The notes under the pieces are model-generated. The model saw only the letters and a program-made list of their open reading frames with translations, did not search any database and was not told the DNA's origin. From the NCBI GenBank assembly GCA_963753345.1, contig CAVWBU010000027.1, positions 218,447 to 282,446 of the forward strand: DNA of 64,000 nucleotides, written 5' to 3'. Shown one piece after another: positions 5,484 through 47,086 of this stretch. The translations under genes and the position numbers were made by a program. This stretch comes from an uncultured Fibrobacterota bacterium. Lineage in GTDB: Bacteria > Fibrobacterota > Chitinivibrionia > Chitinivibrionales > FEN-1185. Numbering within the stretch: position 1 is the first letter of the stretch; each line of letters starts with the position of its first letter.

Positions 5484-6350
5484 GTGCTCCTCGGAATTCA
5501 GCAGAAGAAGGGAGATCCCGGCAAACTCGACGGCCGTCTTACGGTGTACGCTATTCTCGATATCGACCCTTCAGATCTGCTCTCGATGAAACACCCCATT
5601 GCGTCAATGATCCACAACGGGTTGCTTGTTGCGCAAGGCAACTATAGAGACCAGAATAACCTAAGGGATTTTCTCAAGTCCGAAATGGGGCTGTCTCTCG
5701 AGGAGGGGCTTGAGGATTTTCTCGACAAGCTCGGAGGTCTTGAGTCCGCGCTCGATCCGGATAAACTCCGGGAACGCATCGACAATATCGACGAACTGGA
5801 AGATTTTATTCCCACGCCGGCCAAGATCGTTCCATTTCCTTCCGAAACCGATGTGCTCGAGCAGGAGGGGGATGTCTATTTCGCGGGGACATTCAAAAAT
5901 GTAGGAAACGCCATTCTCAGCGTCAACTCGCTGCCGATACTGTACCAGGCAAGGTTCAGGGAACAGGAAATCCAGAAAGTTCGGTGCGAGATAGAACGGC
6001 TCGTTGCCCAAATCGAAAAGAACGCACCGCCGCGCGAAGTGCCTTCTCCCGGAGGTTCGAAAGTCGAAGAAAGGATCATGAAGGATTTTATCCCGAACAT
6101 GCTTTATTGCCGCAAGGAAAAAAAAATCTTCAGTGCGGCGGAGAAACAGTTCCGCGACTTTCTGCACGATTATAGGCGGCCCGAAGACGTGAATGCGGTG
6201 GTGGGCATCATTGCCGAGGAGCATGAACTCACCTCGCGCCACTTCAAACTGCTTGAGCTGTACGCAAAAAAGATATCCCGTGTGACCGAGGAGAACTTTA
6301 CCGAGGCGGAGAGACTCCAGAAGGATATTTCCGCGCTCGAAAACCAGTAA
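5484..6350 (+). CDS. Hypothetical acidic, coiled-coil-rich protein
   Basis: Long ORF in the frame of 5373..6350. The start is uncertain: GTG 5484 is the first start after the upstream stop, and ATG 5586 is an alternative. Confidence 0.4.
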   Translation: MLLGIQQKKGDPGKLDGRLTVYAILDIDPSDLLSMKHPIASMIHNGLLVAQGNYRDQNNLRDFLKSEMGLSLEEGLEDFLDKLGGLESALDPDKLRERIDNIDELEDFIPTPAKIVPFPSETDVLEQEGDVYFAGTFKNVGNAILSVNSLPILYQARFREQEIQKVRCEIERLVAQIEKNAPPREVPSPGGSKVEERIMKDFIPNMLYCRKEKKIFSAAEKQFRDFLHDYRRPEDVNAVVGIIAEEHELTSRHFKLLELYAKKISRVTEENFTEAERLQKDISALENQ

Positions 6351-6380
6351 ATCAATCGCCGCACAACGGAAACCTCCGCA

Positions 6381-8084
6381 ATGCTTTTCGGCAGGCGCAA
6401 CCAGTCGGGCAACATTCAAAGCGACATCACGCTCATGGCGCGTATCGTGGAACATACGCCCGTCGACATTCTCGTAACCGATGTGAACGGTTCGATCCTC
6501 TATGCCAACGCCTGTGCGGAACGCGATCTGAAGGTGCCCCGCAGCAAACTCAGGGGAACTCCGCTTGAATCTCTTCTGTCGGACACCAGCGCCGGTTCTT
6601 CATGGACCGAGTTGAGGGAACGTCTCGCACGCGAGCATACCTTCGATACCAGTGTCCATTTGCTCGGGCGGGACGCGTCGGAGATGACCTGCGCGCTGCA
6701 GGCTTTTTCCATCGATGACACGGTATCGGGCGGCAACGTGTTCGTGTTTCAGTTCAAAGACGTGACGGGCGAAGTCGAGTCCGTGGCGGAGATCGAACGC
6801 AAGAACATCGAAATGGCGAAAATCAACTCCGAGCTCATCCGTTCGAATGCGGAGCTCAAACGCGTGAGCGAGCTCAAGTCAAATTTCCTGAGCATTGCGT
6901 CGCATGAGCTCAAGACACCGCTCACCTCGATCAAGGGTTATTCCGACATCATTATCGACACCATGAAGGGCAAGCTTGAGAGCAGCGTGTTCCGGATGAT
7001 TGAGAGCATCAACCGGGCCGCAGACAGGCTGCACCGCGTGGTGAACAACATCCTTGACGTCACGCGCATCGAGCAGAAGCGTCTCAGACTCAAGCCTGAG
7101 GCCATGAACCTCGCGGCCGTGGCGTGTGAATGCATCGAGGAACTCTCCCAATTCTCGTCAAAACGGAACATTCGGTTTGAATGCGTCGCGGCGGACAACC
7201 TGCCCTTGTTTATGGGCGATACCATGCGCATGCAGCAGGTGTTCACCAACCTGTTCTCCAACGCCATCAAATTCTCTCCCGATAATTCCGCGGTGCAGGT
7301 GCGCATTGAGTTGCACGCTCCATCGGAATTCCACATCGTGGTGAAGGACCAGGGCATCGGCATCGACAAGCTGGAGCAGAAGAAGGTGTTCGATCCGTTC
7401 TACGAAATCGCCAGCGCCACTCGGCACAGCACCGATGCGTCAAAATTCATGGGGGGAGGCACGGGACTCGGCTTGTCTATTGTCAAGGGCATCGTGGAGC
7501 GCCACGGGGGGAGGATATGGATCGAAAGCGACGGGCCGTCTACGACCGTCAAGTTCCCCGGGAGCGAGTTCCACGTTGTCCTTCCCGTCAAGGCCAAAAT
7601 CGAGTGGGACGACGATGAAACCAAGACGATCAGGCTTGCCGATTTGCAGGAAGCGAAGATAAGGGAACATGATGCCGCCGCCGACAACGTGGACAAAAAA
7701 CCCGTGATCCTCCTCATCGACAGCGATCATGAGACCATTGAAATTTCGAAGATGGTTCTGGAAAGCGCATTTGACATTCTGGTGGCGGAGACCGGCGAGA
7801 TCGGACTTGCCATGGCCTTCAACCACGAGCCGTCGGTTATTCTTGTCGATTCGTTCCTTCCCGGAATAGACGGCTATCGCGTATGCCGGATTCTCCGCAG
7901 CCAGGACGAGACCAAGAACATTCCCATCGCATTTTTCTCCGCCGGATCGCAAAGCAGCGAGATCCAGAAATGCTTTGCCTCTGGCGCGGATGACTTCATT
8001 GTCAAGCCCTTCGCGGGGAAGGAGCTGGTTGACAAGATCTGGCGGCTTCTCATGAAAAAGAAAGAGCAGGAGAACTTCAAGTAG
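6381..8084 (+). CDS. Hybrid sensor histidine kinase (PAS-HisKA-HATPase_c-receiver)
   Basis: H-box SIASHELKTPLTSI. N, G1 and G2 boxes (NLFSNAIKF, DQGIGI, GGGTGLGLSIV). C-terminal REC domain (ILLIDSD..ILVDSFLPGIDG..VKPF). Confidence 0.85.
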   Translation: MLFGRRNQSGNIQSDITLMARIVEHTPVDILVTDVNGSILYANACAERDLKVPRSKLRGTPLESLLSDTSAGSSWTELRERLAREHTFDTSVHLLGRDASEMTCALQAFSIDDTVSGGNVFVFQFKDVTGEVESVAEIERKNIEMAKINSELIRSNAELKRVSELKSNFLSIASHELKTPLTSIKGYSDIIIDTMKGKLESSVFRMIESINRAADRLHRVVNNILDVTRIEQKRLRLKPEAMNLAAVACECIEELSQFSSKRNIRFECVAADNLPLFMGDTMRMQQVFTNLFSNAIKFSPDNSAVQVRIELHAPSEFHIVVKDQGIGIDKLEQKKVFDPFYEIASATRHSTDASKFMGGGTGLGLSIVKGIVERHGGRIWIESDGPSTTVKFPGSEFHVVLPVKAKIEWDDDETKTIRLADLQEAKIREHDAAADNVDKKPVILLIDSDHETIEISKMVLESAFDILVAETGEIGLAMAFNHEPSVILVDSFLPGIDGYRVCRILRSQDETKNIPIAFFSAGSQSSEIQKCFASGADDFIVKPFAGKELVDKIWRLLMKKKEQENFK

Positions 8085-38687: not shown

Positions 38688-40803
38688 TCAGAACTTGCAT
38701 TTCAAGACGACATACTGAGAAAGGCCGGGCAGCGGCCTTTGAAAATCGTAATCCTTAACGTTAAGGTAATTTTCGATCCTGTAGGAAAGGTCGAAATGCT
38801 CCCCTATCGTACAACCGATGCTCGCATTCAATTGAGGCCTGGGTTGCTGTATGGGCGGCAGGTTGTCAAAGTTGGTAAAATAGCTGGAGACGAGTCGGGC
38901 CGAATGACCTGCATACCAATTCCTGTACATGAATTTGATGTTGAGATTATCCGTGAATCGCGGCTGCAGCGGTTCGTCCTTCCCATTCCATGATGAAAAC
39001 GTGTCGGAATGCATAATATTTTCCATGTAGGTCATCGAATTGACGACCGACAACCATGGAAACGGGCTCAGGGTGGCGTCGTTTTCCAGCCCCCACGCAT
39101 TGACATCGGACACATTCGTCGGCGTAAACATGGTTGAATGCCCTATGTAAACTATTTTGTCTTTTGTTGTGCTCGCGAATACAGCTCCGGATACGGCGAT
39201 CCATGATTTAACAAAAGAGAACCCCAGGTCGCCTTCCAGCCGGGTCTCGGGACGGAGGGCCGGATTACTTGTTATATGCGCTCCTTCTGAATACTTTTCG
39301 GAAAATCCCGGACTTCGACTACTGTATTGAATACTCGCCAAAATGCCAAGACAATCAAACGGCTGGTAACGTAATTCGGAAAAACCACCGGGAAACCCTT
39401 TCTTTGTTAACCCGCCCCCCGACACCGGGCCAACCAAAGTCATGCTGTCGTTTGTTGAATCAATCTCGTATCGGTAAAGACCGCAAAGTCGTGCCGTTAC
39501 CTCCTTGCAAAAATAGACCTTAGCCTCCATCCCCACCTTCCCGGTAAGGCGGAAATAATGCGGTTGTACTTGCCCCGCTGGCGACAGGAGATTGTCGTCG
39601 TCAAACCCGTCATAGCTCGCGTCAAGGATTCCCTTAAGGAGCAGATGATTTCCGATGCCGTCTTGAAGTATGCCTTCCAATGATCCGTACGGTTGATTGA
39701 AATTGTGCAAGTCGGGCGTCGTGAGATAATATTTTTGGAACCTCCGGAATCCCTCATCCCGGGTTTGCCCTGCTGCCGTTACGGTCATGGAAATGTTTTG
39801 AGCAAGCGCCGCAGAATATGATTCCAGCAATGAAACTCTGCTTTCCCTCACCGTTCCGTCGTTGAGACCCGCCGTTGGGAAGTAATAGATGCCTTCATCC
39901 GTAATGAGCATCGAAAATTGCGAAGTAAGTTTGCTGCGGTTGTCAATCTTGAACGTGTTTTCGTACATTGAAGACAATGTCGAAAAGAAGTTGTTATCCA
40001 TGGTTTTCTGAGAATCATCGGTTGCCACGCTCGGCCCAAGCGTCACAACGCGGTCGGTATACGGATAATTATTGTCCGCCCACCCGTAATTTATGGAAAA
40101 GCGATGGGTCATCCGACCCGAAGTTTTGCTGACTATTGCATTGCCTTCGCGATACCCGAATGAACCGACTTCCAGGGAGGCGGCCGTTGCATCGCCGGCG
40201 CCGTCCGAGGTGAGATTAATGACCCCTGCGGCATTGGCTCCGAAAATCTCAATGGGTGGGGTGGTTTTGTAAATGGTGATGCTTTGCAAGGCGGAAATCG
40301 GAATCTTTGAGATATCAACCGCATTCCCGGTTGAACCATTTAAGGGTATTCCGTCAAGATAGACCTGCACCTGACTCGGCGAGCTGCCCCGGATCGACAC
40401 GTCTGAATAATGGCCGAAACCGCCTCTGTCGCAGATGAACACGCCGGAAACGGTTTCGAGCACCGATTGCAAGTCTACGTATTTGCCCGAAAAGTCCTTT
40501 GCATCCACGATCACTGTTGAAGGGGTATACTCCCTGATACTCTTGCCGGTAACAACCATTTTGTCAATGACGACGCCGGAATCGGAAGTCCGTGCCGGTC
40601 TCGGGATACTGTGGCTTGGAATTGGAGGGCTTAGCATCTTTCGGCGGGGAATTTATCGTGTTGGCGTCGGGATTTGAAATCGAACCCGGAGATTGTGCAG
40701 GCTGGGCAACACCAGTGCTATCCGTTCCCATGGTCAGCGAATCGGATTTCGCTTCCGCAAATACACAAGAGCACAAGCAAATCAACACGAATAGGATGCG
40801 CAC
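38688..40803 (-). pseudogene. TonB-dependent receptor (BtuB-like) with signal peptide and plug/barrel in different frames
   Basis: The barrel ORF 38688..40637 ends in ..YVVLKCKF and begins at the TonB-box-like DSGVVIDKMVVTG, but its frame is closed by TAA at 40653-40655. The signal peptide (V)RILFVLICLCSCVFAEA and a P/S/T/Q linker are in another frame (GTG 40803 to stop 40564). Confidence 0.65.
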
Positions 40804-40892
40804 AGATCGGAATTCCTTGACCCCATCCCTCGGGGATCGTCGGTACAAACGCGAAAATGAATGTTCAGGTAGGTCTCCTGGCTTCCCCAAAG

Positions 40893-41032
40893 ATCATGCC
40901 GGCCTTCCCATTCCGCTTTCGGAACAGTGGCTGAGGCTACATTGCCCTTTGCTTTTCGCAACGGGCCGGGGTCACAGTGGCGGGTCCGCTCCCGATTTTA
41001 ACGGGATTCCCTTGGCACCTGGACATGAGAAA
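40893..41032 (-). promoter_or_regulatory. Cobalamin (B12) riboswitch
   Basis: Minus strand reads GGTGCCAAGGGAATCCCGTTAAAATCGGGAGCGGACCCGCCACTGTGA ... AGCCACTG ... GGGAAGGCCGG. This covers the conserved core and the B12 box, directly upstream of the receptor. Confidence 0.9.
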
Positions 41033-41117
41033 GAACTGCAATAGAATTTAATAAAGATTCGGTGAAGAGGCAAGGAAAAACAGCTGGAAATACCCGGTCA
41101 ACGAGTCTTCCCCGTCA

Positions 41118-41981
41118 TCAAAAGCCAATTATCTTGATTTCACCATCCAAATGATGTTCAAAATCGGTTTCCCATCGGGTGGGATTGTTGCGGATATACC
41201 GCCGAATTTGGAACAACGATTTGTCGTCGCGGATGATGTGATCGTAATAATTGCGTTGCCATATTTTTTCAACCCCGCGTTGTCGGGCGACGTTGATTTG
41301 TTTCGTGGATTGGTATTTGAAATATGCAACGATGTTTCCCAACGTCGTGGTTTTCGTGGTTGGTTTTCCCGTGGTGGTTGCATTCGTGTCCGTTGCATTC
41401 GTATCCCCGATTGTTGCATTTGTAGGGGCGTGGTCATCACGCCCCATTTTATGGGCGCGGGTGTCGCGCCCCATATTTTGGTCGCCGCGCCCCGGGAATT
41501 CCGTCCGGGGAAATTCCATTGGGCGGGATAACCCCGCCGTTTCGGATTCAATCGCGCCGGATGATGGCATGATGGGGCGGGATAACCCAATGGGGCGCGA
41601 TGACCGCGCATACGTGGGCCCGTCGGTTTTCAGAATGGGGCGCGATGACCGCGCCCCTACGAATGTCGAATCCCGGATGACGATAATGCCGTGAATATGA
41701 TTCGGCATGATGATGAATTCGTCCAACCGGATATGCGGATAATGCGCCGGCAAATCGTTCCAACATTGACGAACAATAATCCCATAATCGTTTTCGACCA
41801 TTGCGCCGCCAACAACGTCCCCGAATAATTTTTGTTTGCGATCCTGAATGCAAACCGTGACAAAATACGCGCCGGGAAGGGAATAATCGTAGCCGGGCAG
41901 ACGGATGGATTTGCGATTGCCTGCCCTGAGCGAGGTCGAAGGGTGATAACCGGTGTATTTGTTGAAGATGCCAGTGGACAT
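41118..41981 (-). CDS. REP-associated tyrosine transposase (RAYT) / IS200-like Y1 transposase with an expanded repeat linker
   Basis: RLPGYDYSLPGAYFVTVCIQDR, HUH-type MPNHIHGIIVI, and C-terminal LGNIVAYFKYQSTKQI..WQRNYYDHIIR (catalytic Tyr region). Confidence 0.85.
   Translation of the reverse strand: MSTGIFNKYTGYHPSTSLRAGNRKSIRLPGYDYSLPGAYFVTVCIQDRKQKLFGDVVGGAMVENDYGIIVRQCWNDLPAHYPHIRLDEFIIMPNHIHGIIVIRDSTFVGARSSRPILKTDGPTYARSSRPIGLSRPIMPSSGAIESETAGLSRPMEFPRTEFPGRGDQNMGRDTRAHKMGRDDHAPTNATIGDTNATDTNATTTGKPTTKTTTLGNIVAYFKYQSTKQINVARQRGVEKIWQRNYYDHIIRDDKSLFQIRRYIRNNPTRWETDFEHHLDGEIKIIGF
41425..41657. repeat. Cluster of 6-8 bp-stem GC hairpins inside the RAYT coding sequence
   Basis: GGGGCGTG-gtcat-CACGCCCC (41425-41445), GGGCGCG-ggtgt-CGCGCCC (41453-41471), GGCGGG-ataac-CCCGCC (41522-41538), GGGGCGCG-atgac-CGCGC(CCC) (41592-41609 and 41637-41657). 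Confidence 0.75.
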
Positions 41982-42142
41982 TGTTCCGCCTTAAGCACTA
42001 GGATCAGGAAAAAGATAGTACTACGGATTGCCGAGCCCGTGCGGCGTGGGCGTGCCCGTGCAAGGCCGAACCTTCCGTTGCGCGCACGGTAGAAGCACCC
42101 GATTAATAAATTCTTGACGGAACATACCGACGATTGAGCCCA

Positions 42143-42556
42143 CCTGCTGGCATCCCCCGTTCGTCTCGATACAGCCCGTGCTCCGCCCAGGCCACTCGAC
42201 GAACGGTGTACCGTCCCGCCGGTCATCGAGTAGACGCTTTAGGGTCGTATCGAGATGCCGGCCACCCCCGTTCGTCTCGATACAGCCCGTGCTCCGCCCG
42301 GGCCACTCGACGAACGGTGTACCGTCCCGCCGGTCATCGAGTAGACGCTTTAGGGTCGTATCGAGATGCCGGCCACCCCCGTTCGTCTCGATACAGCCCG
42401 TGCTCCGCCCAGGCCACTCGACGAACGGTGCACCGTCCCGCCGGTCATCGAGTAGACGCTTTAGGGTCGTATCGAGATGCCGGCCACCCCCGTTCGTCTC
42501 GATACAGCCCGTGCTCCGCCCGGGCCACTCGACGAACGGTTACCGCCCCGAGAAAT
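42143..42556. repeat. Tandem array, 111-nt unit, about 3.7 copies, each with conserved inverted repeats
   Basis: Unit starts at 42154, 42265, 42376 and 42487, with 2-3 substitutions among copies. IR CCGTTCGTC-32 nt-GACGAACGG within each unit. GTATCGAGA/TCTCGATAC pairs across unit junctions. Confidence 0.9.
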
Positions 42557-42845
42557 CCTTCTTCGCCAGCGAATGCAGCTCATTGTTCCGTTTTTCGATC
42601 AGCGCTTTCTTTTTCGCGTGGCTCCAGCCCTGTACCTGCTTCTCACGATAAAATGCTTCATCGATTCTCGAATATTCTTCGTTGTACACCAACTTTACAG
42701 GGTGCTTCTTTCTCGTGTAATTGGCGCCAAGAAAATTATTGTGTTCCCAAATTCGTCTTTCGAGATTCTTCGTGCTGCCGGTGTAAAATGTGCCATCGGC
42801 ACATTGAAGAATGTACATCCACCCTTTCATACCATTATCCTTCAA
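42540..42845 (-). CDS. Small GIY-YIG nuclease-family protein (YhbQ/UPF0213-like)
   Basis: 101 aa with GWMYILQCADGTFYTGSTKNLERRIWEHN (GIY..YTG motifs and the R..EH region). Confidence 0.85.
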   Translation of the reverse strand: MKDNGMKGWMYILQCADGTFYTGSTKNLERRIWEHNNFLGANYTRKKHPVKLVYNEEYSRIDEAFYREKQVQGWSHAKKKALIEKRNNELHSLAKKDFSGR

Positions 42846-42871
42846 GCTGGATTATTCAGGAATTACAGTTG

Positions 42872-42996
42872 CCGCCCGACGAGTGCCGCTCGCCTCGATA
42901 CATTCCTCCGGAACACTCGGCGAGCGGTATTCGACGAACGAGCTACTTCCCCGCCGGTCATCGAGTAGACGCTTTAGCGTCGTATCGAGATGCCGG
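42872..42996. repeat. Diverged extra copy of the 111-nt unit
   Basis: Keeps the hairpin with compensatory changes (CCGCTCGCC-24 nt-GGCGAGCGG, 42886-42927). The 3' half is almost identical (CCGCCGGTCATCGAGTAGACGCTTTAGCGTCGTATCGAGATGCCGG). Confidence 0.75.
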
Positions 42997-44187
42997 CACC
43001 CGGCCCAAATCCAATTCGCCTGCAAACGCGCGCTGACTGAGGGAAGAATAGAGGTTTTCGAGGGAGGTGAGGCTTTGGGTGTAGAGGGATTTGAGGGATT
43101 CGAGTTTGAGGACGAGGGAGGAGAAATTTTTCTGGAGCGAGAGAGGGGGAATCGGAACAAATATTTTTTCCATTGCGTCTGTATCGAATTTCTTTGTTCC
43201 ATGACCAGCCGTTGTGATTGCCGCAAGAATCTGACGATCCATATTGTCTACACAGTTCTTTAGATAATGTACTGTGACTTCCTTGACAGGAAGTATGGCC
43301 TTCATGTCCTGATTGATGGAAACGTCAACGGTGTTTATTGCAGTTGGAAAGGTATGCGCCAAGATCATTCCGCGAACTACAATAAGCAAATGACCTGAAC
43401 CTATCTTTTTGAGATTTGTTTCGTCAAATACTTTTTCAGAGAGGTAGTCTTGCGCCTTTGAAATATATGGTACCTTCATATCCTTTGGGCTAATCCAGGG
43501 AAACTTTCCAATCCAGAAATCATTTCGTTCTTTACTTGGTGTACCACCGCTGATGAATGTGCCAACCTCATGCATTGGAAGTGTCTTCCACCCCTTCTCA
43601 TTCCTCACCGGGTCCCCAAACATCTCCAGAAACGCGCTCTTCGCCAATTCATCCAGCGCCTTGATGCTCTCTTTGCGTTTGGCAATCAGCTTTTCCGCGC
43701 GGGTGAGAAGGGCGGCGATGCGGATTTGGTCGGCGAGCGATTCAGGAAGGGCAATTCTTATTTGGGCCACATCCGAGGGATACAAATGGATGCCTTTTAC
43801 CTTTGACTTTAGCCATTTCAGGCCTTGCGGTGATTTGATGAACTGGTTAACAAAATCCTTATCCGCCTTTATTGGTCTAATTATCAACCATTCTCCTGTG
43901 GCAATCACACCGTCTATGGCTTCAGGTACTAGCGCGGTCTTGCTGCCAACGTAAGCAGAATTATGGGCAGCATTCAATACAATCGTATCACCTGTGCGCA
44001 ATCTTTTGTTTTCAAATCTCCTATAGAAGTCTGCATCAACGAACGATTCAAACAAGCCCTTGAAATTACCATTCTCGTCAATGTCACGTATTTTTAAAAT
44101 TGGAAGCCCCGAAGACCTTTGCTCGTTTTTTGAGGGCGTTTTGCCATTGAAAACATTTGCAACAGTGCTTAGGAGTTCCTTCTTCAT
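42958..44187 (-). CDS. hsdS: Type I restriction-modification specificity subunit
   Basis: 409 aa with two target-recognition halves separated by conserved helices (..IAALLTRAEKLIAKRKESIKALDEL.. / ..SLYTQSLTSLENLYSSLSQRAFAGEL). ATGA overlap with hsdM. Confidence 0.9.
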   Translation of the reverse strand: MKKELLSTVANVFNGKTPSKNEQRSSGLPILKIRDIDENGNFKGLFESFVDADFYRRFENKRLRTGDTIVLNAAHNSAYVGSKTALVPEAIDGVIATGEWLIIRPIKADKDFVNQFIKSPQGLKWLKSKVKGIHLYPSDVAQIRIALPESLADQIRIAALLTRAEKLIAKRKESIKALDELAKSAFLEMFGDPVRNEKGWKTLPMHEVGTFISGGTPSKERNDFWIGKFPWISPKDMKVPYISKAQDYLSEKVFDETNLKKIGSGHLLIVVRGMILAHTFPTAINTVDVSINQDMKAILPVKEVTVHYLKNCVDNMDRQILAAITTAGHGTKKFDTDAMEKIFVPIPPLSLQKNFSSLVLKLESLKSLYTQSLTSLENLYSSLSQRAFAGELDLGRVPASRYDAKASTR

Positions 44188-45776
44188 CCCACCATCCCCT
44201 CCATCTCCCCCAGCTCCCCCGCAATCTCCTTCTCCATCTTCCTCAATTTTTCCAGAATCTTCCCCGGCTTCTCATACTCAACCTCTTCAAACACATCCTC
44301 TTTATATTTACTCATGCTCAAGTCATAGTTTTCCTTAACGACCTCGGCCTTGGGCACAAAGAAGAATTTCTCCTTCCTGTCGCTCTTCTTTTTCTGGTCC
44401 CGTTTCTTAAATTGCGTCACAATGTCCTGCAAATCTCCGTAGCCTTCCAGCTTTGTCCGTTTGTCGTCCAGGCTGTACCCGTCGCTTTGCATATCGTAGA
44501 ACCAGATGTTCTCGGTTTCTCCGCCTTTGGTAAAGACCAGGATTGCGGTGCTTACTCCTGCGTAGGGCTTGAACACGCCGCTGGGCATGGTAACGACCGC
44601 CTTGAGTTCGCATTTTTCAACGAGGATCTTTCGCGCTTCCACAAAGGCGTTGCCGCTGCCGAACAACACGCCCTGCGGGACAATAACGCCGGCCGTGCCG
44701 CCCATCTTGAGCAGGTTGTAAATGTTCTCCACAAAGAGCAGTTCCGTTTTGGTGGTCCCCAGCTTGAGCGACTCGTTGATGTCGCCTTTGTCTATGCTGC
44801 CCGTAAACGGCGGGTTGGCCATTACAATCTGGTACTTGTTCTGCTCGATAAACGTTTTGCTCAGGGTGTCTTTGTAGTCCACGTGCGGCGTGTCCACGCC
44901 GTGCATCATGAGGTTCATGAGGCCCAGGCGCACCATGGTCACGTCGAAATCGTAGCCGTTGAGGCCCGCGTTGAGGATGTCGCTCACCTTTTTGTTAAGG
45001 CGGCTGCTCACCGAGCTGCGGACAAACCCGTCTTCGTCGGGCCTGGGCTTCTTCTTGTCTTTGTCGAGCTGCGTCACAATGTACTGGTACGCGCCGAGCA
45101 AGAACCCGCCGGTGCCGCACGCCGGGTCGCAAATATGGTTCCCAAGCTGCGGGTCTACAAGCTCGGTAATAAGCTTGATGATATGACGCGGGGTCCTGAA
45201 TTGCCCGTTCTTGCCAGCCGTGGCTATTTCGGAGAGCAGCATTTCGTACACGTCGCCCTGAATGTCCTGGAACGCGTGCCCGCCGGTCTTGGAATCTTTT
45301 TCGATCTCCGCGAATATCTCCTCAATGGTGGACATGGCCTCGACAAGCAGACTGGGCTTGGGAATGATAAAGACCGCGTTCGACATGTGATGGCTGAACG
45401 GCGATTCGTTGCCGTTGAGCGTTTTGAGGAACGGGAACACTTTGGTTTGCACATGCGAAAGCATTTCTTCCGCCTGCATCCGCTTGAACCGGCTCCATCG
45501 AAGCGTCTTCTTGTCCACCTTCTGCTTTGTTCCGGGTATTGTAAACGTGCCGCTGAACCTGGAGACGTACTTCTCGCCGGTGAATTCGGCGTCCGATGTC
45601 CGCTTCAGGTCGAGGTCGTCGAGCCGCTTCATAAAGAGCAGATAGGTTATCTGCTCGATTGCGGTGAGCGGGTTGGCAATGCCGCCGCTCCAGAACTTGT
45701 CCCAGAGCTTGTCGATTTTGCTTTTGAGCGCGGAGTTGTTTTGAAGCACTATTTGTCCTTTTCTAATATCTGCCAA
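44184..45776 (-). CDS. hsdM: Type I R-M N6-adenine DNA methyltransferase subunit
   Basis: HsdM N-terminal domain (LWDKFWSGGIANPLTAIEQITYLLFMKRL), SAM motif DPACGTGGFL, catalytic NPPF. Confidence 0.9.
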   Translation of the reverse strand: MADIRKGQIVLQNNSALKSKIDKLWDKFWSGGIANPLTAIEQITYLLFMKRLDDLDLKRTSDAEFTGEKYVSRFSGTFTIPGTKQKVDKKTLRWSRFKRMQAEEMLSHVQTKVFPFLKTLNGNESPFSHHMSNAVFIIPKPSLLVEAMSTIEEIFAEIEKDSKTGGHAFQDIQGDVYEMLLSEIATAGKNGQFRTPRHIIKLITELVDPQLGNHICDPACGTGGFLLGAYQYIVTQLDKDKKKPRPDEDGFVRSSVSSRLNKKVSDILNAGLNGYDFDVTMVRLGLMNLMMHGVDTPHVDYKDTLSKTFIEQNKYQIVMANPPFTGSIDKGDINESLKLGTTKTELLFVENIYNLLKMGGTAGVIVPQGVLFGSGNAFVEARKILVEKCELKAVVTMPSGVFKPYAGVSTAILVFTKGGETENIWFYDMQSDGYSLDDKRTKLEGYGDLQDIVTQFKKRDQKKKSDRKEKFFFVPKAEVVKENYDLSMSKYKEDVFEEVEYEKPGKILEKLRKMEKEIAGELGEMEGMVG

Positions 45777-47086
45777 CGGCCTTTTCTTGTTGCACCAATA
45801 TGTTTTATTAGGCCTAATTTTGTAAGGTTCCTAAGATGATATTTCACGCCATCCGGCGTAATAGCCAATTTGTTTGCAAGTTCGTTTCTCGTTATGTGCG
45901 GGTCTACACTTATCAGGGAAAGAATTTTTTCTTGGGTAGTTTTCCCCTGTTCTTGGGTAGTTTCTTGGGTAGTCCGCTTAAACGTAACGGTGAAAAAGGA
46001 ATCGAATTTAAAAACCGGCTCCGGATCTCCGGCGGCGGCAAGGGCGTTTTTTATCCGGTTGATTCCGGTGCCCATTTTCTCGATATAGCCGGTGCGATGT
46101 AAAAGCGACGCGATCAACGGGTTTCGCGAAACGCTCAGCGTTCCGAATTTTTCCGGTGAAAGCCCTTTGGGAAGCCCGCCGGGATTGGAAATGTGTATCC
46201 GGTCGTCAAAAATTTCGACCATGATATTGGCGCCTTTTTCAAAATAATCCCGATGACAGGCTGCATTAACAATCGCCTCGCGCAAGGCGACTTCGGGTAT
46301 TTCGAGAATTTCCGCGCGCTGCATTGTCTTGATTTCGTACCGTAGGTTTAAATGTTTTTTCAAGAAAAGGATGGTATCTTCGATGTTGGAAATTAAATCG
46401 GCGGAGAAATCTTTTCTATCAAGAATTGTAATCTTTTCAATGCCTTTGTACAGCGCGCAGGTTATGGTCGCAAAAAATAGATGGGGCGGCAAGTTCCGGC
46501 AGAAAAAAAGGAGTCCTGCATTATTAAGATACAGCTTGTGGCGCCTATGAAGCAAAACCCCCAAATTTTCAAGGACAGCATGGTCGCCAAGGGTCTTCGT
46601 GATTTTTGCGGCGTTTACAAATCGAGTGAGAACCGAGGGATCCAAAACTTTGTTAAGGTCAACATTCTCGTCGACGATTTCATCAAACCGCACTTTGCCT
46701 TCGGATTGGATGAATTCAGTTATTTCCCGAGTGGACATCTTTTGTGAGTTCGCGCCGCTGCGCAAATAGAACCCTTTTGAACAACGATACGGTTTGTTCA
46801 AGCCTTCTTTAACCTGTATAATTAATATGTTTTCGAAATGGGTTATTTCGATTGGGACCGGAGGATCGCAATGGGTGGCCATGTCTTGTATTTGAGAGAG
46901 GATAGTATTGTTCTTTGCAATTCCGGTCTGTACATTGTGGTCATTGATGCCGATAAATATTCTTCCGCCAATGGAATTTGCCATGGCGACAAGTTCTTTC
47001 GAAAGATCGGAATTCACATTTTCCTTAAATTCAAGGGTGAGGCCTTCGCCTTCCTCCAAAATGAGAGCCAATTCCTTCTTGTTCAT
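45749..47086 (-). CDS. AlbA_2 (Schlafen-type) / HATPase_c_4 / winged-HTH protein embedded in the R-M operon
   Basis: N-terminus EGEGLTLEFKENVNSDLSKELVAMANSIGGRIFIG. Middle region REAIVNAACHRDY. C-terminal wHTH ITRNELANKLAITPDGVKYHLRNLTKLGLI. Overlaps both hsdR (1 nt) and hsdM (28 nt). Confidence 0.8.
   Translation of the reverse strand: MNKKELALILEEGEGLTLEFKENVNSDLSKELVAMANSIGGRIFIGINDHNVQTGIAKNNTILSQIQDMATHCDPPVPIEITHFENILIIQVKEGLNKPYRCSKGFYLRSGANSQKMSTREITEFIQSEGKVRFDEIVDENVDLNKVLDPSVLTRFVNAAKITKTLGDHAVLENLGVLLHRRHKLYLNNAGLLFFCRNLPPHLFFATITCALYKGIEKITILDRKDFSADLISNIEDTILFLKKHLNLRYEIKTMQRAEILEIPEVALREAIVNAACHRDYFEKGANIMVEIFDDRIHISNPGGLPKGLSPEKFGTLSVSRNPLIASLLHRTGYIEKMGTGINRIKNALAAAGDPEPVFKFDSFFTVTFKRTTQETTQEQGKTTQEKILSLISVDPHITRNELANKLAITPDGVKYHLRNLTKLGLIKHIGATRKGRWQILEKDK

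Follow-up and report, generated by a model that had tools for sequence, protein, structure and literature searches.

The window analysed here is a stretch of 64,000 nucleotides from an uncultured Fibrobacterota bacterium (contig CAVWBU010000027.1), and all positions below are counted from its first letter. It holds ten two-tier hairpins over 1.1 kb, and the gene of a small GIY-YIG nuclease lies inside this cluster. We conclude that the region is probably a module of an Ssn-type nuclease and its cognate hairpins. This kind of system has been known since 2025, and the hairpin class of the window is outside the published consensus. A preliminary description, made from the letters alone, had left several readings side by side: a cluster of repetitive extragenic palindromes (REP) or bacterial interspersed mosaic elements (BIME) served by a neighbouring REP-associated tyrosine transposase (RAYT), a structured RNA or single-stranded DNA (ssDNA) element tied to the GIY-YIG gene, and protein-binding iterons. 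The ssDNA element tied to the GIY-YIG gene is the reading favoured by our analysis, based on the neighbours of the hairpins in other genomes, on the covariation of their stems and on the Ssn-like layout of the locus. The elements of the cluster are as follows.

42154-42552, no strand assigned: tandem array of three full 111-nt units and a partial fourth (TRF, BLAST, unit comparison).
42157-42206, minus strand: hairpin A, copy 1, CCGTTCGTC-GAGTGG-(inner hairpin)-TGTATCGA-GACGAACGG (sequence, ssDNA fold).
42268-42317, 42379-42428 and 42490-42539, minus strand: further copies of hairpin A, the last directly after the GIY-YIG stop codon.
42219-42261, plus strand: hairpin B, copy 1, CCGGTCATC-GAGTAG-ACGC TTTA GGGT-CGTATCGA-GATGCCGG, the inner part being ACGCTTTAGSGT (ssDNA fold).
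42330-42372 and 42441-42483, plus strand: further copies of hairpin B (sequence).
42540-42830, minus strand: gene of the single-domain GIY-YIG nuclease, 96 aa from an ATG at 42830 or 101 aa from a TTG at 42845.
42886-42927, minus strand: hairpin A', CCGCTCGCC-GAGTGT-TCC GGAG GGA-ATGTATCGA-GGCGAGCGG, the inner part being TCCGGAGGA (sequence, fold).
42928-42941: truncated start of a hairpin A, CGTTCGTCGAATA, adjoining A' (sequence).
42954-42996, plus strand: fourth copy of hairpin B, with a perfect inner stem GACGC/GCGTC, overlapping the 3' end of hsdS (BLAST, sequence, fold).
41923-41944, plus strand: tenth, mini hairpin of the GAG...TCGA class, gccctGAGCGAGGTCGAagggt, in the 5' part of the RAYT open reading frame (ORF).

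Across the 64-kb window Tandem Repeats Finder (TRF) reported one strong array (42154-42550, period 111, 3.6 copies, 97% matches, score 759). When unit 1 was compared with the window by BLAST, three copies were full-length (starting at 42154, 42265 and 42376; 99-100%). A fourth was partial (42487-42540, 54 nt), 48 nt matched at 42950-42997 (97.9%), and no further copies were found. The array is therefore real, but the four near-identical units that had been described are three full ones and an incomplete fourth, in which the 54 matching nucleotides are followed by ∼12 nt of degenerate similarity that encode the C-terminus of the GIY-YIG protein. Two sites vary among the units, position 36 (A/G) and position 56 (T/C), which argues for distinct copies, their number being that of the assembly. 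As had been described, the array ends at the stop codon of the GIY-YIG gene (TAA, the reverse complement of 42540-42542). A CRISPR-like array was rejected, because the units are near-identical from end to end and spacers are absent. We also rejected the 300-aa ORF on the plus strand as a repeat protein; its product matches no Pfam family, the conserved GIY-YIG gene runs across it on the opposite strand, and the ORF was rightly called spurious.

In each unit hairpin A, on the minus strand, is separated by 12 nt from hairpin B, on the plus strand, and a 6-nt spacer follows. The 111 nt thus hold the same motif twice, in opposite orientations, the motif being an outer stem, GAGTRG, an inner hairpin, YGTATCGA and the complementary outer stem. 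The inverted repeat CCGTTCGTC-32 nt-GACGAACGG, which the preliminary description had given for every unit, was found in all four. The second pairing that it had proposed, GTATCGAGA/TCTCGATAC, does span adjacent units with 19 nt between its arms, but the anatomy of one hairpin and a bridge has to be replaced by two inverted copies of the motif. The bridging pairing and the hexamer CTCGAT/ATCGAG, which is seen directly in the sequence three times per unit, occur because the TCGA/GAG core is common to both orientations. The core pattern GAGTRK-N6-30-GTATCGA was counted 9 times in the window, compared to 0.08 expected from shuffled sequences.

Folded as ssDNA, the forward strand of the hairpins forms an outer stem followed by the two GA/TC pairs, then a 3x3 internal loop (GTR/GTA) and the inner stem, with z-scores from -2.1 to -4.0. 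For hairpin A we obtained the two-tier structure at -15.6 kcal/mol (z -3.65) and for hairpin B at 42954-42996 a fold of -13.2 kcal/mol (z -4.03). The forward strand folds better than the reverse for both A and B, and the hairpins are strand-asymmetric: they share a conserved GTA/GTA internal loop and have G-T pairs on one strand only. Iterons are not supported, given this asymmetry and the lack of replication genes nearby. Hairpin A' is the diverged copy of the preliminary description and ends 55 nt upstream of the GIY-YIG ATG. Its two compensatory pairs (CCGCTCGCC...GGCGAGCGG) and its shorter loop with the same ends were both found as described, and the form GAGTGTTCC...GGAATGTAYCGA is found again beside GIY-YIG genes in three other loci (L139, L140 and L149 in our numbering).

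In order to find the motif outside the window we ran one exact-pattern scan (GAGTAGACGCNNNNGSGTCGTATC) per large collection, metagenomes and genomes, leaving the flanks unconstrained. The scan returned 11 metagenome loci and 5 genome loci, the latter from Treponema bryantii, two Herbaspirillum species, an Actinomycetota metagenome-assembled genome (MAG) and Latescibacteria UBA6620. Every match has a complementary outer stem, even though the flanks were free to vary, and the stems differ by lineage (GGTT/AACC, CCCT/AGGG, GGTC/GGCC, GATT/AATC, CATC/GATG). Neighbouring copies at these loci carry other inner hairpins and are often inverted or in tandem. For 32 distinct instances, trimmed of the variable middle part of the inner hairpin, we compared the pairing with shuffled alignments. 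In the proposed structure 82% of the cells are paired compared to 62% in the shuffles, and the covariation score is 0.54 compared to 0.21 (0 of 500 shuffles reach 0.54), with controls in which the partner was slid along remaining at or below 0.16. The scan pattern fixed the inner stem in 16 loci, and it is the outer stem that gives the unbiased evidence: at its four positions nearest the core 88-100% of the instances pair, and each position shows three or four pair types. The repeat is oriented, with GAGTRG and GTATCGA as an invariant non-palindromic part beside the covarying stems. Copies thus exist in several phyla, and it is the structure that is preserved and not the sequence alone, as had been suggested, since stems covary while unpaired bases stay fixed.

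A looser core pattern was applied to viral contigs. Its matches are mostly due to chance (∼1900 expected by estimate) and we only used those with two stems; both stems were present in 23 of 129 core matches, compared to ∼0.4 expected by our own estimate. The dispersed copies are intergenic and often located just past stop codons. Literature searches with the hairpin strings gave no match.

The position of many copies just past stop codons also fits a reading in which the hairpins act as RNA, that is, as 3'-end stabilisers, terminators or regulators of the hsdS and GIY-YIG transcripts. Stable RNA folds, G-T (G-U) pairs on one strand and the suggestion of an RNA-level function for many REPs (Di Nocera et al. 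2013, PMC3733652) point in the same direction. However, forward and reverse copies alternate, so that half of the copies in any transcript would be in the non-conserved sense, and insertions inside ORFs (the hsdS tail and the N-terminus of the RAYT) argue for spread at the level of DNA. We found no terminators or T-tracts in 41900-43100. Rfam 15 returned no family at the hairpins at any threshold tried (window 40500-44500 at E<=5, 16 loci at the gathering score, 6 loci at E<=10), and a scan for tRNA and tmRNA was negative. The characterised Ssn enzymes do not bind RNA either (PMC11893778). We consider an RNA function very improbable.

To determine which gene goes with the hairpins, the search was reversed, starting from the GIY-YIG gene and looking for hairpins, and this reverse test was decisive. 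The class was defined as a stem of at least 5 bp, GAG, N2-36, TCGA and the complementary stem. Six independent loci with homologues were fetched, and in each of them hairpins of this class adjoin the gene.

L139: a block made up of a B-type hairpin, tandem repeats of ∼40 nt period and, 26 nt ahead of the ATG, a GAGTGTTCC...GGAATGTACCGA hairpin; the gene is followed by a second copy of the whole block.
L140: two upstream hairpins, one B-like and one A'-like; downstream a minimal pair (stem)GAGCTTGTCGA(complementary stem).
L142: minimal dimers in both flanks.
L143: a minimal dimer in the upstream flank.
L149: both kinds in both flanks.
L158: a gene 86% identical in nucleotides; a hairpin A identical to that of the window directly after the stop codon; a cluster with a period of ∼173 nt.

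Altogether, 9 of 12 independent loci have GAG...TCGA hairpins no further than 350 bp from the GIY-YIG homologue. Within this distance of six independent genes their density is 4.8 per kb, compared to 0.09 per kb in the rest of the loci and one per 103 kb in unrelated sequence. Of the two associations that had been proposed for the copies, the one with GIY-YIG genes was thus found and the one with RAYT genes was not. Hairpins occur in both flanks (within 500 bp) in the window, L139, L140, L142, L149, L158, L154 and L155; in the window these are B (42954-42996) and A' (42886-42927) upstream and four A and three B downstream. Homologues with only 42-46% identity, on Methylobacterium and Sphingomonas replicons, have the class on both sides as well. 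The gene of L158 differs from that of the window in 25 synonymous and 11 non-synonymous codons and is placed in a different context, with insertion sequence (IS) transposases and methyltransferase genes on either side.

The flanking hairpins bear on a related reading, in which they are landing sites: a free-standing GIY-YIG enzyme of the homing type would insert into existing dimers by break repair, and the hairpins would spread by other means or by slippage. In four loci same-strand direct repeats of hairpins bracket the gene, namely the window, L139 (171 nt, 98.8%), L142 (71 nt, 94%) and L158 (185 nt, 97%), and near-identical direct copies of the dimer or array, as in the last three, are what such insertion would leave. 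Solo hairpins that are common without a nearby gene, and the gene's occurrence in several contexts, also fit. However, the density of hairpins drops ∼50-fold beyond 350 bp from the gene, which suggests that they travel with the gene or form near it and were not there beforehand, and a single-domain protein of 96 aa has none of the DNA-binding domains of known homing enzymes (PMC11893778). We regard landing sites as unlikely in their own right, and the reading overlaps with that of a nuclease and its cognate hairpins and does not exclude it.

One further observation concerns L139, where the tandem array (5690-5940 and 6320-6540, period ∼40 nt) is built of truncated hairpins, each of which starts right after TCGATA of the reverse motif. 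This constant breakpoint inside the conserved loop might be a point of cleavage or recombination.

The GIY-YIG protein itself matches the Pfam GIY-YIG domain with an E value of 2.1e-17 over residues 7-79 of 96 and has no second domain, and the GIY-YIG core is conserved across 31 aligned homologues. There are 4296 homologues, the best of them 70-83% identical, and among the best 120 the identity is about 67-83%; the few named sources in this group are MAGs of Spirochaetales/Spirochaetota, Latescibacterota, Calditrichota and Ignavibacteriales. The protein is 39% identical to a GIY-YIG protein of S. meliloti and 30% to YhbQ of E. coli. YhbQ was considered as a REP partner and rejected: yhbQ is tightly packed between yhbP and yhbS, with no REP annotated nearby, and the literature on COG2827/YhbQ held nothing relevant. 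Exact-protein look-ups of the window protein, with three choices of start, and of the hsdS product found neither on record. Many homologues have variable N- or C-terminal extensions (95-168 aa; P0002-P0120), and the strings RY..LLDDR, SAPLSDR, RQAQ and STSSATG in them are translations of flanking hairpin repeats. We consider such extensions probable artefacts of annotation.

The first description of site-specific ssDNA nucleases dates from 2025 (Chenal et al., Nat Commun 2025, PMC11893778). The Ssn enzymes are single-domain GIY-YIG proteins of ∼94 aa, and membership is defined by the CDD model cd10448 (GIY-YIG_unchar_3) or by BLASTP at E<1e-10 and 75% coverage against SsnA of N. meningitidis (CAX49033.1). 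They cut ssDNA site-specifically beside hairpin repeats, called NTS in Neisseria and SRM in general, and leave double-stranded DNA, RNA and the reverse strand uncut. Of the Ssn homologues, 71% are flanked by one or more repeats and 42% are flanked on both sides. The arrangement NTS-ssnA-NTS was likened by its authors to an insertion sequence and to RAYT/REP/BIME (all PMC11893778). For Neisseria, a limit on the recombination of incoming ssDNA has been proposed as the role of the system. The window resembles this system in several respects. The protein is likewise small (∼94-96 aa) and single-domain, without an extra DNA-binding domain; its gene lies between oriented 20-50-nt hairpin repeats with a conserved non-palindromic part; and the repeats also occur solo and clustered, mostly in intergenic sequence and in a layout similar to that of an insertion sequence. 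The hairpins themselves differ, being GAG...TCGA hairpins with a two-tier stem, whereas the NTS is a CGTC-AT-stem, and the tandem array of 111-nt dimers is a further difference.

Several results weigh against assigning the locus to the Ssn type. The SRM consensus HGTCWYN(0-2)YYVSBRHN(0-5)WNVSBRGN(0-2)RNCYNB has 0 matches on either strand of the 64-kb window and 0 in L139, L140, L142, L143, L149 and L154-L157, while as a positive control the same regular expression matches the NTS consensus. The best solved relatives of the protein are the UPF0213 proteins 1zg2 (6e-13) and 1ywl (3.4e-11); for cd10448, by which Ssn is defined, it is a candidate member. The hairpin class is absent at 3 of the 12 loci, namely a 39%-identical S. 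meliloti gene, a Sphingomonas pseudogene and a phage contig. (In viral contigs a search with the single protein found nothing, and one with an alignment found one distant phage homologue, without hairpins.) All hairpins of the window lie in one 1.1-kb cluster (41923-42996), with 64 kb of the genome covered, and solo copies elsewhere have no GIY-YIG gene in the fetched flanks. Such copies are expected for dispersed repeats but prove no link. These points leave some room for a bolder version, which we put forward only tentatively: a second partnership of nuclease and hairpin, outside Ssn/SRM, that would reach from Alphaproteobacteria to Spirochaetota and Actinomycetota and comprise more than 4000 proteins. 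In this version the nuclease itself, and no RAYT, would both generate and spread the hairpins, and the in-frame insertions into hsdS, the RAYT ORF and similar genes would be its work as well.

We then turn to the neighbouring transposase gene, which had been proposed to serve the hairpins.

41118-41981, minus strand: RAYT-like Y1 transposase gene (NCBIfam, Pfam, homology).
41422-41445 (plus strand) and 41637-41660 (minus strand, starting at 41660): GTAG-tagged perfect palindromes GTAGGGGCGTGGTCATCACGCCCC and GTAGGGGCGCGGTCATCGCGCCCC within this gene.

The assignment as RAYT is reasonable, and by homology the product is a genuine member of the family, with homologues named RayT by JGI, but the scores are below the curated cut-offs (NCBIfam REP_Tyr_transpos 59.3 bits, cut-off 80; Pfam Y1_Tnp 18.3, cut-off 23). 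In the corresponding reading the adjacent RAYT binds, cleaves and spreads the GTAG hairpins as ssDNA, as in a REPtron, and the GIY-YIG gene is a passenger. The RAYT-like gene is only 172 bp from the array, GTAG is present in hairpin B and GTGG in hairpin A, and some GTAG REP families are reported to have GTGG as a variant (Di Nocera et al. 2013, PMC3733652). Tandem dimers of alternating orientation, as in the array, are typical of REP clusters (PMC3733652). The inner stem-loop GACGCGCCAGCGTCG of the actinobacterial copies is shared with E. coli REP, with a 15-nt identity to part of the REP in all 5426 E. coli genomes, and at its 5' end the RAYT ORF overlaps with the mini hairpin. The likeness to REP/BIME (PMC3733652) extends to GC-rich imperfect palindromes with GTAG or GTGG in tandem inverted dimers, which are found after stop codons and occasionally inside ORFs, next to a RAYT-like gene. 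In the window, however, GTAG/GTGG lies inside the internal loop between two stems and is not an unpaired 5' tag.

Other results stand against the RAYT as the enzyme of the hairpins. The array is on its 5' side only, and between its 3' end and a cobalamin riboswitch there are no hairpins of the class, so that the gene is not flanked on both sides as in a REPtron. The RAYT ORF has palindromes of its own, GTAG followed by the perfect palindrome GGGGCGYGGTCATCRCGCCCC, which are of canonical REP type and unlike the array hairpins in sequence. We found no Y1_Tnp within 4-6 kb of the GIY-YIG gene in five Pfam-annotated metagenome loci, and in L158 there are DDE_Tnp_1 transposases only and no Y1_Tnp near the gene. 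A 60%-identical RAYT homologue on four contigs (L159-L162), located directly after a type I hsdR, has no GAG...TCGA hairpins. There are no RAYT genes near the dispersed solo copies, and tblastn with the RAYT was empty in 1.2 Mb around 138 motif-bearing loci. A PF01541 match in the HsdR of L159 was considered as a sign of a recurrent link between RAYT and GIY-YIG and rejected, as tblastn with the window GIY-YIG protein was empty there and hairpins were absent. Across these loci the hairpins co-occur with GIY-YIG genes and not with RAYT. A REP/BIME cluster served by the RAYT is improbable on these grounds.

The RAYT gene therefore looks like a target of hairpin insertion and not like the enzyme of the hairpins. 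A 24-nt in-frame insertion (PSTSLRAG, 41921-41944) in its N-terminal region holds the complete mini hairpin. Among 11 aligned homologues the insertion is shared by the window protein and P0131, its closest relative, alone. The gene is probably a bystander outside the hairpin system. A separate observation concerns the linker of ∼100 aa between its HUH and Tyr motifs (41380-41680), which is made of GTAG palindromes and degenerate copies of them. In translation they yield VGARSSRP and GRDDRAP modules. VGA..P does not vary within the family, and among homologues the linker is ∼0 to 100 aa long. The gene thus seems to host its own REP-like palindromes in frame.

Two further groups of repeats offer parallels. 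CGTC-tagged REPs, with the neisserial dRS3 (Di Nocera et al. 2013), were likewise orphan repeats without a transposase that were later tied to a GIY-YIG nuclease, and the outer stem of hairpin A starts with CGTC next to the core; the stem-loop architecture and the conserved bases differ. Rickettsia palindromic elements and other intragenic REPs are short palindromes in frame in genes, as are the hairpins in the RAYT (PSTSLRAG) and the HsdS tail. Unlike the Rickettsia elements, those of the window belong to another sequence family and adjoin a candidate nuclease partner.

For the Ssn-type module we suggest a mechanism modelled on Neisseria. The hairpins would fold when the DNA is single-stranded during replication, transformation or conjugation, as for SsnA and NTS. 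The nuclease would then bind the fixed GAGTRG/GTATCGA bases together with the stem junction, on one strand only, and would cut the DNA near the hairpin, ssDNA and not RNA being the likely substrate. As hairpins A and B are on opposite strands, both strands would carry sites. The 111-nt array may be an A+B dimer that was amplified ∼3.5-fold. Slippage, unequal recombination or break repair could have produced it, as well as the flanking direct repeats. The module and also single hairpins behave as mobile DNA. The module is found in different genomic contexts, and hsdS, at its end, and the RAYT ORF have probably gained hairpins in frame.

On the other side of the GIY-YIG gene the cluster adjoins type I restriction genes. 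The order of transcription, all on the minus strand, is hsdR, Schlafen/AlbA_2, hsdM, hsdS, GIY-YIG and the RAYT-like gene, where the hsdR of the window operon is inferred from a related contig (L001, ERZ25039473:contig_9092).

42958-44187, minus strand: hsdS, type I restriction specificity subunit, with a C-terminal tail GRVPASRYDAKASTR encoded by hairpin B.
44184-45776, minus strand: hsdM.
45749-47086, minus strand: Schlafen/AlbA_2 gene.

The stop codon of hsdS (42958-42960) is inside the repeat, which supplies the last 12 codons and the stop, as the preliminary description had stated. In L001 (11311-12901) hsdM is 99.8-100% identical to that of the window but split into two frames, which could be a frameshift or a sequencing error. 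By raw count, type I restriction genes lie beside the cassette in 3 of 9 hairpin-bearing loci (window 42958-47086, L139 4226-12120, L149 4865-8285). In L139 the cassette is placed between hsdM and the truncated start of an hsdS. Between the array and the start of the RAYT we also observed an element of ∼80 nt (42025-42110, minus strand) that is 78% identical to 8176-8257 of L158, where a solo hairpin likewise precedes it by ∼100 nt; Rfam and tRNA searches gave no match for this element. The cobalamin riboswitch (RF00174, 40851-41037, minus strand, 80.6 bits, full length) is upstream of a 649-aa ORF (38688-40637, minus strand) whose product, judging by sequence, resembles a TonB-dependent receptor.

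The locus explains a REP-like class of several phyla that has no Rfam entry or description in the searchable literature. Since the published search consensus misses GAG...TCGA hairpins, motif surveys for Ssn-related systems probably under-count the family. The hairpins reshape the ends of genes, giving HsdS a new C-terminal tail and the transposase an in-frame insertion, and they give rise to long spurious ORFs and to variable N- and C-terminal extensions of GIY-YIG proteins as annotated. The role of the module could be either a service to the host, for example limiting the recombination of incoming ssDNA as in Neisseria, or purely selfish, and its proximity to type I restriction genes may bear on defence islands and on the control of incoming ssDNA. 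Each pair of nuclease and hairpin is a potential new tool, and the locus combines a very conserved GIY-YIG protein of 96 aa with a well-defined hairpin under structural constraint. If the second partnership outlined above is true, the REP-like class would gain its missing enzyme, and with it there would be a new specificity for cutting ssDNA.

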